From Escherichia coli (GTDB lineage Bacteria > Pseudomonadota > Gammaproteobacteria > Enterobacterales > Enterobacteriaceae), in assembly GCF_017348835.2 (NCBI RefSeq), contig NZ_CP071375.1: a stretch of DNA of 64,000 bases, one strand, 5' to 3'. This document shows positions 17,601 to 20,600 of the stretch, in pieces. The stretch's first letter is position 1; each line of letters opens with the position of its first letter. Made by a program: the position numbers.

Positions 17601-20600
17601 GTTCGCGGATCGGGCAGCCCACACAAGCGGCAAACCAGAATGGCACTGGAAATGGAGCCGCAGAGGTACGCGATGAGGATCATTCCAGGCGCGATTGCAC
17701 TCATAAGCTGTTCCGTTTTGAAAATTCGTGTTCAACGATGAATCTGTGGATAATACGCACATTTCGCCGGAAGTGGTATCCGGTTAGCCAAAAAGCAGGC
17801 AGGACGTGATGGATATTGTATTTATAGAGCAACTTTCGGTAATCACCACTATTGGTGTTTACGACTGGGAACAGACCATCGAACAGAAGTTAGTGTTCGA
17901 TATCGAAATGGCGTGGGATAACCGTAAAGCGGCGAAAAGTGATGATGTGGCGGATTGCCTCAGTTACGCTGACATTGCAGAAACGGTGGTCAGCCACGTC
18001 GAGGGGGCACGTTTTGCGCTGGTGGAGCGCGTGGCGGAAGAGGTGGCGGAGCTGCTGTTAGCACGCTTCAACTCGCCGTGGGTGCGTATCAAACTCAGCA
18101 AGCCAGGCGCAGTGGCGCGGGCGTCGAATGTTGGCGTAATCATTGAGCGTGGCAATAATCTGAAAGAAAATAATTAATTTTACAGCTGTTAAACCAAACG
18201 GTTATAACCTGGTCATACTGCAGTAGTTCGGACAAGCGGTACATTTTAATAATTTAGGGGTTTATTGATGAGCGATATGCACTCGCTGCTGATAGCGGCA
18301 ATATTGGGTGTGGTCGAAGGATTGACAGAATTTCTGCCGGTATCCAGCACGGGCCATATGATTATTGTCGGTCACTTGTTGGGGTTTGAGGGCGACACGG
18401 CGAAAACCTTTGAAGTTGTGATCCAGTTAGGATCAATTCTGGCGGTAGTAGTGATGTTCTGGCGGCGTCTGTTTGGCCTGATTGGCATCCACTTTGGCCG
18501 CCCGTTGCAGCACGAAGGAGAAAGCAAAGGTCGTTTAACGCTGATCCACATTTTGCTGGGGATGATTCCGGCGGTGGTACTGGGGCTGTTGTTCCACGAC
18601 ACGATTAAGTCATTGTTTAACCCGATAAATGTGATGTATGCGCTGGTCGTTGGCGGTTTGTTGCTGATTGCCGCCGAATGCCTGAAGCCGAAAGAGCCGC
18701 GTGCGCCGGGTCTTGATGATATGACCTATCGTCAGGCGTTTATGATTGGCTGTTTCCAGTGTCTGGCGCTGTGGCCGGGTTTCTCCCGTTCCGGGGCGAC
18801 CATTTCAGGTGGGATGCTGATGGGGGTGAGCCGTTACGCTGCTTCCGAGTTTTCGTTCCTGCTGGCGGTGCCGATGATGATGGGCGCAACGGCGCTCGAT
18901 CTCTACAAAAGCTGGGGCTTCCTGACAAGCGGCGATATCCCGATGTTTGCCGTTGGGTTTATCACCGCTTTTGTGGTGGCGCTGATAGCGATTAAAACCT
19001 TCCTGCAATTGATTAAGCGCATTTCGTTTATCCCGTTCGCCATTTATCGCTTTATTGTGGCGGCTGCGGTGTATGTCGTGTTCTTTTAATTGAGGAATAG
19101 TGTCGGATGCCTGGCGTTGTCCACGATTGCGTAGGCCGAATAAGGCGTTCACGCCGCATCCGGCAATCAACGCCTGATGCGACGCTTGCGCGTCTTATCA
19201 GGCCTACAACTGTCGTTGACGTGTAGCCGGATAAGGCGTTTACGCCGCATCCGGCAAAATGCCCAATACTCATTCAGGCTTTGGGCAACGTTGTTCCTTC
19301 CAGCTGGCTACCGCCGCAATCCGCCGTCGGGTCAGCTCATCGCGAATCTCCACGCCTTTAAATCCCGCTTCAACGACGGCTTTTGTCGGCACTGACTGCG
19401 CCACTTCCCAGGCTTCGCGCAACCAACGGCCTTGCGGGTAGTCCGCTGATTCAAAACCGGTTCTGCCGCGCACGTCAGCCTCGCTGGTCAGCGCCAGTTG
19501 CTCGACACGCTGCGGTTTACGCCAGGCATCGATGGAATCAAATAATTTGACGATGGTTTTTGGGTTCAGCATTGGGAAGGTGTGGATGAGATCGTGAAAC
19601 TCAGCCACCAGTCTGGCTAAATCGCGAATTTCATTTGGCACGCGCAGACGCTGGCATAGTTGTTCCACTAACTTAACACCCGCCGGGCCATGACCATGAT
19701 GACGCGGCCAGAGTTCTGGCGGCGTCAGTCCTTTACCGAGATCGTGGCATAAAGTTGCGAAACGGACATCGACCTGCGGACTCAGCATCGCCGCCATTGA
19801 GAGCGTCATTAAGGTATGAATACCCGTGTCGATTTCCGGATGCCACCTGGCAGGGGCCGGAACGCCAAACAGGGCGTCAATTTCCGGGAATAAAACGCGA
19901 AGTGCACCGCAATCGCGCAGTACCTGGAAGAACACCTGGGGATTGCGGGTGGTGAGGGCGCTTTCCGTCTCTTTCCACACCCGTTCAGGCGTCAGGTGTT
20001 CCAGTTCACCCGCATGGGTCATCTCGCGCATCAGCGTCAGAGTTTCATCGGCAATACGAAAACCGAGGTGGGCATAACGCGCAGCAAAACGCGCCACGCG
20101 CAATACGCGTAACGGATCTTCGCCAAAAGCGGGGGAAACATGGCGCAACAGACGATTTTGCAGATCGCCCAGACCGTTGTACGGGTCGATAATCTCGCCG
20201 TTATCGTCCTGGGCCAGCGCATTAATGGTCAGATCGCGACGCTTAAGATCATCTTCCAGCGTGACATCCGGTGCGGCATAGCAGGTAAAACCGGTGTAAC
20301 CGGAGCCGGATTTCCGTTCGGTACGTGCCAGCGCATACTCTTCATGCGTTTGCGGATGCAGAAACACAGGAAAATCGCGGCCTACCTGCTGGTAGCCCGC
20401 GTCGAGCATCTCCTGTGGCGTAGTGCCGACCACTACCCAATCTCTGTCTTTGACCGGTAGCCCTAACAATGCATCCCGAACAGCACCACCGACCAGATAA
20501 ATCTTCACGCCATCATCCCTTCGTCAAATACACAATTCCTAATAATAAGACAGTGCAACGAAGAAGGCGATTTAGTTCATCCAGCGATCTTTGCGTTTGC

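Follow-up and report, generated by a model that had tools for sequence, protein, structure and literature searches.

Descriptions of REP/BIME arrays go back to the 1980s. In the scheme of Ton-Hoang 2012 (PMC3333891), BIME-1 joins Y and Z1 REPs across a long L linker that often bears an IHF site, BIME-2 joins Y and Z2 REPs by short linkers in tandem copies, and atypical BIMEs are chimeras. It is this L linker of BIME-1 that IHF binds (PMC3333891, PMC2817692), and gyrase binding is reported to be stronger for BIME-2 (PMC2817692, PMC1475751); gyrase binding and cleavage of BIME-2 are credited to Espeli & Boccard 1997, as relayed second-hand in PMC2817692 and PMC1475751. A conserved GTAG tetranucleotide is the rule for REPs (PMC3333891, PMC3479197), and the RAYT gene of K-12, yafM, has REPs of the Y and Z2 types on its flanks. 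The naming of these units is in conflict, as the units of the K-12 REPtron are called z1 in Messing 2012 and z2 in both Ton-Hoang 2012 and Nunvar 2010; Z2 is used here, following the majority usage and the REP325 papers.

The model BIME-2 array is REP325 of K-12 (yjdM-yjdN), which is made of alternating Y and Z2 REPs (Qian 2015; Harris 2026), counts 12 units inside an operon and is the source of naRNA4. The locus analyzed in this study lies in a 64-kb stretch of E. coli DNA, referred to as the window, and carries 3 units between two convergent genes. An array with identical REPs is present at the same place in K-12, between bacA and cca. The RefSeq record of K-12 lists no repeat features at the bacA-cca spacer, and a search for bacA or cca in supplementary REP tables found nothing useful.

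The uppP-cca spacer and its palindromes

The two flanking genes are uppP (undecaprenyl-diphosphate phosphatase; 18265..19089, + strand; NCBIfam NF001388, 534.8 bits), whose TAA stop codon occupies 19087-19089, and cca (multifunctional CCA-adding/repair enzyme; 19270..20508, - strand; NCBIfam NF008137, 737.6 bits), whose TGA stop codon occupies 19272-19270. They are convergent and separated by a spacer of 180 bp (19090-19269). In K-12 and in E. coli PE164 the genes are annotated as bacA and cca, and the start of uppP annotated in both strains is one codon downstream of the TTG of the present ORF. These NCBIfam matches and annotations confirm the convergent uppP/cca flanks that a preliminary description of this DNA had named. 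The genes plsY, folB, bacA/uppP, cca and ygiM follow one another in this order, as they do near 3.20 Mb in K-12, where the region has the opposite orientation. Over 1 kb around the array the sequence is 100% identical to PE164 and 99.3% identical to K-12, and this stretch is present in 5,425 of the 5,426 complete E. coli genomes.

The preliminary description had placed a cluster of REP palindromes at 19100-19262, and a pattern search found three REPs there. REP1 is of Y type (19131-19164; GTAGGCCGAATAAGGCGTTCACGCCGCATCCGGC) and has its GTAG on the + strand at 19131-19134. REP2 is of Z2 type (19172-19207; GCCTGATGCGACGCTTGCGCGTCTTATCAGGCCTAC) and has its GTAG on the - strand, seen as CTAC at 19204-19207. 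REP3 is again of Y type (19223-19255; GTAGCCGGATAAGGCGTTTACGCCGCATCCGGC), with GTAG on the + strand at 19223-19226. GTAG thus forms the 5' foot of all three REPs, at 19131 (+), 19223 (+) and 19207 (-), and since the tags read +, -, + the orientation of the REPs alternates, as had been claimed. Linker 1 (AATCAAC, 7 nt, 19165..19171) joins the ends of REP1 and REP2 that do not carry GTAG, and linker 2 (AACTGTCGTTGACGT, 15 nt, 19208..19222) connects the CTAC of REP2 with the GTAG of REP3. All three REPs are extragenic, falling between the stop of uppP (19089) and the stop of cca (19270). They had been said to fill this space; they do lie within it, but REPs and linkers together span 125 of the 180 intergenic bases.

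The assignment of the units to REP types comes from several published sequences. REP1 and REP3 are identical, as the reverse complement, at 33/34 and 32/34 positions respectively to the REP consensus GCCGGATGCGGCGTGAACGCCTTATCCGGCCTAC (quoted in PMC12306157), so that the palindromes do match this consensus on alignment, and REP3 also matches the Y sequence of Nunvar 2010. The 26-nt core of REP3 is the same as the Y REP in the co-crystal with TnpA_REP (PMC3479197), and the match of REP2 is to Z2 as listed in Table 1 of Nunvar 2010. The palindromes had been described as three copies of one sequence, which is true of the two Y units, both of the type quoted, but not of the middle unit, which is Z2. 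REP1 and REP3 are direct repeats that lie 91 bp apart and are 94% identical, with one G absent after the GTAG of REP3.

The 30-mer quoted in the preliminary description matches REP3 without a mismatch and was found twice when up to 3 mismatches were allowed, compared with 0 matches in 100 shuffles. The REP half-site GCCKGATGCGRCG gave 4 matches against 0.48 expected, and the other REP half-site gave 2 against 0.01 expected. A chance origin of the REP matches is excluded, and from its sequence the identity of the locus as a REP/BIME cluster is essentially certain. When a 261-nt query for the array was searched against E. coli genomes, it matched a median of at least 29 places per genome, which is a high copy number. 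Within the 64-kb window no REP locus was found other than the uppP-cca spacer. A 13-mer at 61509 was considered as a further REP and rejected as a chance match, as it lies in a coding region and does not extend.

Between uppP and REP1, the segment at about 19101..19130 (+ strand; TGTCGGATGCCTGGCGTTGTCCACGATTGC) aligns with a fuller Z-like palindrome found in strains A32 and 19KM1803, which reads GTCGGATATGA(C/T)GCT..GCGTCTTATC... in those strains. The fold of 19101-19130 is no better than that of shuffled sequences (z = -0.74). Because it no longer folds better than chance, this segment is read as a probable decayed fourth palindromic unit and not as a functional hairpin here.

Comparison with K-12, REP325 and related elements

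The bacA-cca array of K-12 MG1655 (NC_000913.3, about 3,203,130-3,203,309) has the same 180-bp length, the same order of REPs and the same orientation. Its three REPs are 100% identical to those reported here, and the 3 single-base differences between the two spacers all fall outside the REPs, 2 of them in the decayed unit and 1 in linker 2. The comparison with K-12 that had been suggested as a check thus found identical REPs at the corresponding locus, and it supports the reading of these repeats as a BIME-type array.

The alternation of Y and Z2 units and their polarity are shared with REP325. The Z2 units of REP325 are identical to REP2 at 36/36 positions, and its Y units are the same as REP3 except for the 1-nt (G) deletion in REP3. 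The array is colinear with 1.5 units of REP325, and the linkers alone differ, both in length (7 and 15 nt here compared with 12-13 and 17 nt in REP325) and in sequence, which is unrelated. The Rfam model of naRNA4 (RF02564) has as its basis the unit Y + linker + Z2 from REP325. It matches the first Y + Z2 pair at 19134..19204 (+) with 79.3 bits against a gathering threshold of 59.5, and with E = 2e-12 when the window is taken as a whole; the full length of the model (1-77) is covered, with 6 nt of its linker deleted.

The alignment with REP325 and the passing of the naRNA4 threshold lead to the conclusion that the array is BIME-2-like, a class to which its composition and its short linkers also point when judged from the sequence. 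The order Y(+), Z2(-), Y(+) is the alternating Y/Z2 arrangement of BIME-2, the linkers are short and differ from those of REP325, and the copy number differs between strains, which have either one REP or three. The array can be described as a small BIME-2-type cluster of the form Y-Z2-Y, that is, 1.5 Y/Z2 units together with the decayed fourth unit. The short linkers of BIME-2 are the S and s/l/r motifs, and with the linkers here judged by their length, the label 'atypical BIME' may also apply.

With BIME-1 and RIP (RIB) elements the array has in common an inverted pair of REPs that includes a Y unit, in an extragenic position. However, it lacks the Z1 partner and the long L linker that define BIME-1, having instead a Z2 partner and linkers of 7 and 15 nt, and the exact IHF consensus WATCAANNNNTTR does not occur in the spacer. 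Membership in BIME-1 was rejected on these grounds. The sole IHF-like match is AATCAACGCCTGA at 19165, which has one mismatch to the core WATCAANNNNTTR. The general remark in the preliminary description that such palindromes bind gyrase and IHF therefore has to be divided between gyrase, for which BIME-2 is the class with the stronger binding, and IHF, which is tied to the L linker of BIME-1 that is absent here.

The locus also shares features with the REPIN / RAYT (TnpA_REP) system, namely GTAG-tagged hairpins, an internal mismatch in the stem, inverted pairs and an iREP with CC|T cleavage motifs. On the + strand REP2 is an iREP with both TnpA_REP cleavage motifs, GCC|TGAT at 19172 and GGCC|TACA at 19201, as these motifs were defined by Ton-Hoang 2012 (PMC3333891). 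The + strand thus combines the features of a REP binding site (GTAG and a mismatched stem) with a Z2 iREP. The 64-kb window contains no RAYT gene.

Hairpins, spacer alleles and possible function

The REPs are predicted to fold on both strands into a stem, an internal loop and an upper stem, with energies of -18 to -22 kcal/mol and z values of -3.7 to -6, except for REP1 on the + strand. There, a G-to-A change (GCCGAAT) gives an A·C mismatch and a weaker hairpin of -12.6 kcal/mol; in the - strand (cca-sense) RNA the changed position forms a G-U pair and the hairpin reaches -18.4 kcal/mol. The two strands of REP2 fold at -21.4 and -20.5 kcal/mol (z about -6) and those of REP3 at -19.7 and -21.7 kcal/mol. 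The spacer as a whole folds with z = -7.2 on the + strand and z = -5.7 on the - strand. A search for intrinsic terminators (a hairpin followed by a T-run) on both strands of 18800-19600 returned 0 sites, and as none of the hairpins is followed by a T-run, any termination here would not be intrinsic. No sigma-70-like promoter was found in the spacer. In the cca mRNA the stem of REP3 begins 14 nt past the TGA stop codon, and in the uppP mRNA the first REP lies 41-45 nt past the TAA stop codon.

The best-supported model, which is more probable than not, is that the BIME-2-type REP cluster in the shared 3' region of uppP and cca serves the two genes as a two-way 3'-end module, a function suggested by analogy with published work on other REPs. 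Transcripts of uppP and of cca that read into the spacer would acquire stable 3' REP stem-loops, and these hairpins would impede 3'-to-5' exonucleases on both mRNAs and favor partial Rho-dependent termination. Working in both directions at the 3' ends, the array would also insulate the convergent genes from each other, and its duplex DNA would be a candidate gyrase site, like that of BIME-2 arrays. REP325 has been described as a partial Rho-dependent terminator and mRNA stabiliser, and a REP is reported for 207 of the 704 convergent gene pairs, together with higher expression of these pairs (bioRxiv 10.64898/2026.03.23.713779). Stabilisation of upstream mRNA by REPs is documented and depends on context, and terminal REPs are not generally tied to longer half-lives (bioRxiv 10.64898/2026.03.23.713779).

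Alleles of the spacer were counted by separate searches of 5,426 complete E. coli genomes, and because the categories overlap slightly the counts are approximate. The 3-REP array allele was found in 2,707 genomes (50%), which comprise about 2,370 genomes at ≥95% identity together with a divergent form that has a fuller fourth unit (A32). In A32, REP3 has paired changes on both arms of its stem (GGCG/CGCC to GACG/CGTC) that preserve the hairpin. In 1,202 genomes (22%) the spacer measures 80 bp and holds one degenerate Z-like palindrome (strain 19KM1803). In 1,260 genomes (23%) it is 162 bp long and holds an inverted pair that is GC-rich and unrelated to the REPs, GGGAGAGGG…CCCTCTCCC (strain Ceylon31), an element that megablast places at a median of about 5 sites per genome. 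A single Y REP that resembles a hybrid of REP1 and REP3 (strain E1) was found in about 190 genomes (roughly 3.5%). In 134 genomes (2.5%), an IS1397 insertion separates the two halves of the REP3 stem. This element is known for its specific insertion into BIME palindromic units (PMC1525189); a clean target-site duplication was not identified at this insertion.

It is proposed from these sequences that the alleles with one REP and with three arose from each other by gain or loss of a 91-bp Z2+Y unit, and the single-Y, hybrid-like allele of E1 fits such a change. The copy number would shift if the two direct Y copies recombined, or by the action of TnpA_REP/RAYT, and the models of Ton-Hoang 2012 (PMC3333891) cover both routes.

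The context dependence of REP effects speaks against the functional model, and so does the change in REP1, which weakens its stem on the uppP-sense strand. The array is also missing in about half of the E. coli genomes and split by IS1397 in 134, and it is therefore dispensable. The main rival to the two-way 3'-end module is that the array is selfish or neutral, a repeat without a selected function for the host at this locus and the residue of REP/BIME proliferation at a tolerant site. The spacer has at least 5 alternative fillings across the 5,426 genomes, one of them the IS1397 insertion, its linkers are not conserved relative to REP325, and one of its units has decayed while the stem of another is weakened, all of which speak for this rival. 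However, the three REPs are identical to those of K-12 while all 3 spacer differences fall elsewhere, the paired changes in the REP3 stem of A32 keep its hairpin, and genome-wide the REPs between convergent genes are associated with higher expression (bioRxiv 10.64898/2026.03.23.713779). On this balance, the absence of a selected function is a serious possibility, but a minority one.

A further alternative is that the Y-Z2 pair is transcribed as a nucleoid-associated, HU-binding RNA like naRNA4, which would form bridges between REP cruciforms and condense the chromosome. Binding of HU and condensation of DNA have been reported for naRNA4 (PMC4550694), and the score of the Rfam match is above threshold. 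However, what the Rfam model describes is in essence one Y + Z2 pair of REPs, so that a match to it shows the identity of the REPs and not a function, and the linker here is 6 nt shorter than that of the model. A later preprint, which comes from the same groups as the naRNA4 report and disputes the nucleoid role, found REP325/naRNA4 to be without measurable nucleoid compaction and contacts between REPs to be independent of HU (bioRxiv 10.64898/2026.03.23.713779). Such a role for the present pair is therefore very improbable. It is just as improbable that the array is a BIME-1/RIP-type IHF-binding element or a bidirectional intrinsic terminator, since the general statement on gyrase and IHF, the one-mismatch site at 19165 and the overlap of about 40% of convergent-gene REPs with predicted bidirectional terminators (bioRxiv 10.64898/2026.03.23.713779) are countered by the lack of Z1, of the long L linker and of the exact IHF consensus, and by the lack of any hairpin followed by a T-run on either strand.

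Apart from its possible role as a 3'-end module, the array may bear on translation. REPs that lie <=15 nt past a stop codon have been reported to make ribosomes stall at termination and to reduce translation (Liang 2015, cited second-hand from PMC12306157). The distance of 14 nt between the cca stop codon and REP3 falls within this 15-nt limit, which by analogy is a lead only, and because of this spacing the array allele might lower the translation of Cca. With 41-45 nt between the uppP stop codon and the first REP, an effect of proximity to the stop codon could apply to cca only. The stronger claim, that the array allele lowers translation of the CCA-adding enzyme (by stalling and trans-translation) and that the five fillings of the spacer set the levels of cca and possibly uppP by lineage, is speculative and would have to be called unlikely.

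Significance of the array

The array is real, ordinary and already known, and the earlier reading of it was right in outline. As a discovery it has little weight, given that K-12 has the array with identical REPs. What this study adds are refinements, namely the Y-Z2-Y make-up, the character of BIME-2 and not of BIME-1, the decayed unit, the 14-nt spacing from cca and the census of alleles.

The locus is a worked example of REP-driven intergenic polymorphism, in which one convergent spacer has at least 5 different repeat contents, including an IS1397 insertion in the middle of a REP. These natural alleles of the spacer are suited to tests of REPs as local 3'-UTR regulators. If the effect on translation were true, the set-points of cca, and possibly of uppP, would differ between lineages of E. 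coli without any change in coding sequence or promoter.

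Variation within the REP elements

The first REP element of the uppP-cca spacer (REP1, 19131-19164, + strand) carries a G-to-A change at window position 19139, within GCCGAAT, which removes a base pair in the DNA and in the uppP-sense RNA; in the cca-sense RNA this position pairs as G-U. The change is common to K-12, and strains A32 and E1 have G there. The third element (REP3, 19223-19255, + strand) is split in strain Z1323HEC0477 by IS1397, a member of the IS3 family that is placed between the two stem halves (480-500 and 440-470 of the comparison sequences L009 and L010, respectively). 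The same junction was found in 134 of 5,426 complete E. coli genomes. No clean target-site duplication could be read at this insertion. Elsewhere in the window, a 13-mer similar to a REP half-site (GCCGGATGCGGCA, 61509-61521) was rejected as a chance match, being inside a coding region and lacking a second half that would complete a palindrome.

Other elements of the window

Two tandem SIB RNA genes (27124-27273 and 27500-27649; Rfam RF00113, 141 and 148 bits) lie between hldE and yqiK, and short ibs toxin genes were seen opposite both. SIB/ibs is an already known type I toxin-antitoxin pair, and the FMN riboswitch upstream of ribB (31116-31264; RF00050, 120.9 bits) is likewise already known and annotated. 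Within 1-6810, an island not known from the K-12 gene order adjoins a tRNA with anticodon CAT (6732-6807, - strand; annotated as tRNA-Ile in strain PE164). It contains IS1 transposase, DUF4942, DUF957 and DUF5983 genes, and also encodes a very large protein with a TcdA/TcdB glycosyltransferase domain, the gene for which continues beyond the window start.

A GC-rich inverted pair in place of the array

About 23% of complete E. coli genomes have, in the uppP-cca spacer, an unrelated GC-rich inverted pair instead of the REP array. In strain Ceylon31 (comparison sequence L003, 925-1022) its arms are GGGAGAGGGCCGGGGTGGGGG and CCCTCACCCTAACCCTCTCCC, and GTAG immediately precedes the first arm. Rfam comparison of the pair gave no match. 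Megablast against complete E. coli genomes placed it at a median of about 5 sites per genome. The pair could belong to a further family of small repeats in E. coli, possibly a boxC-like one.
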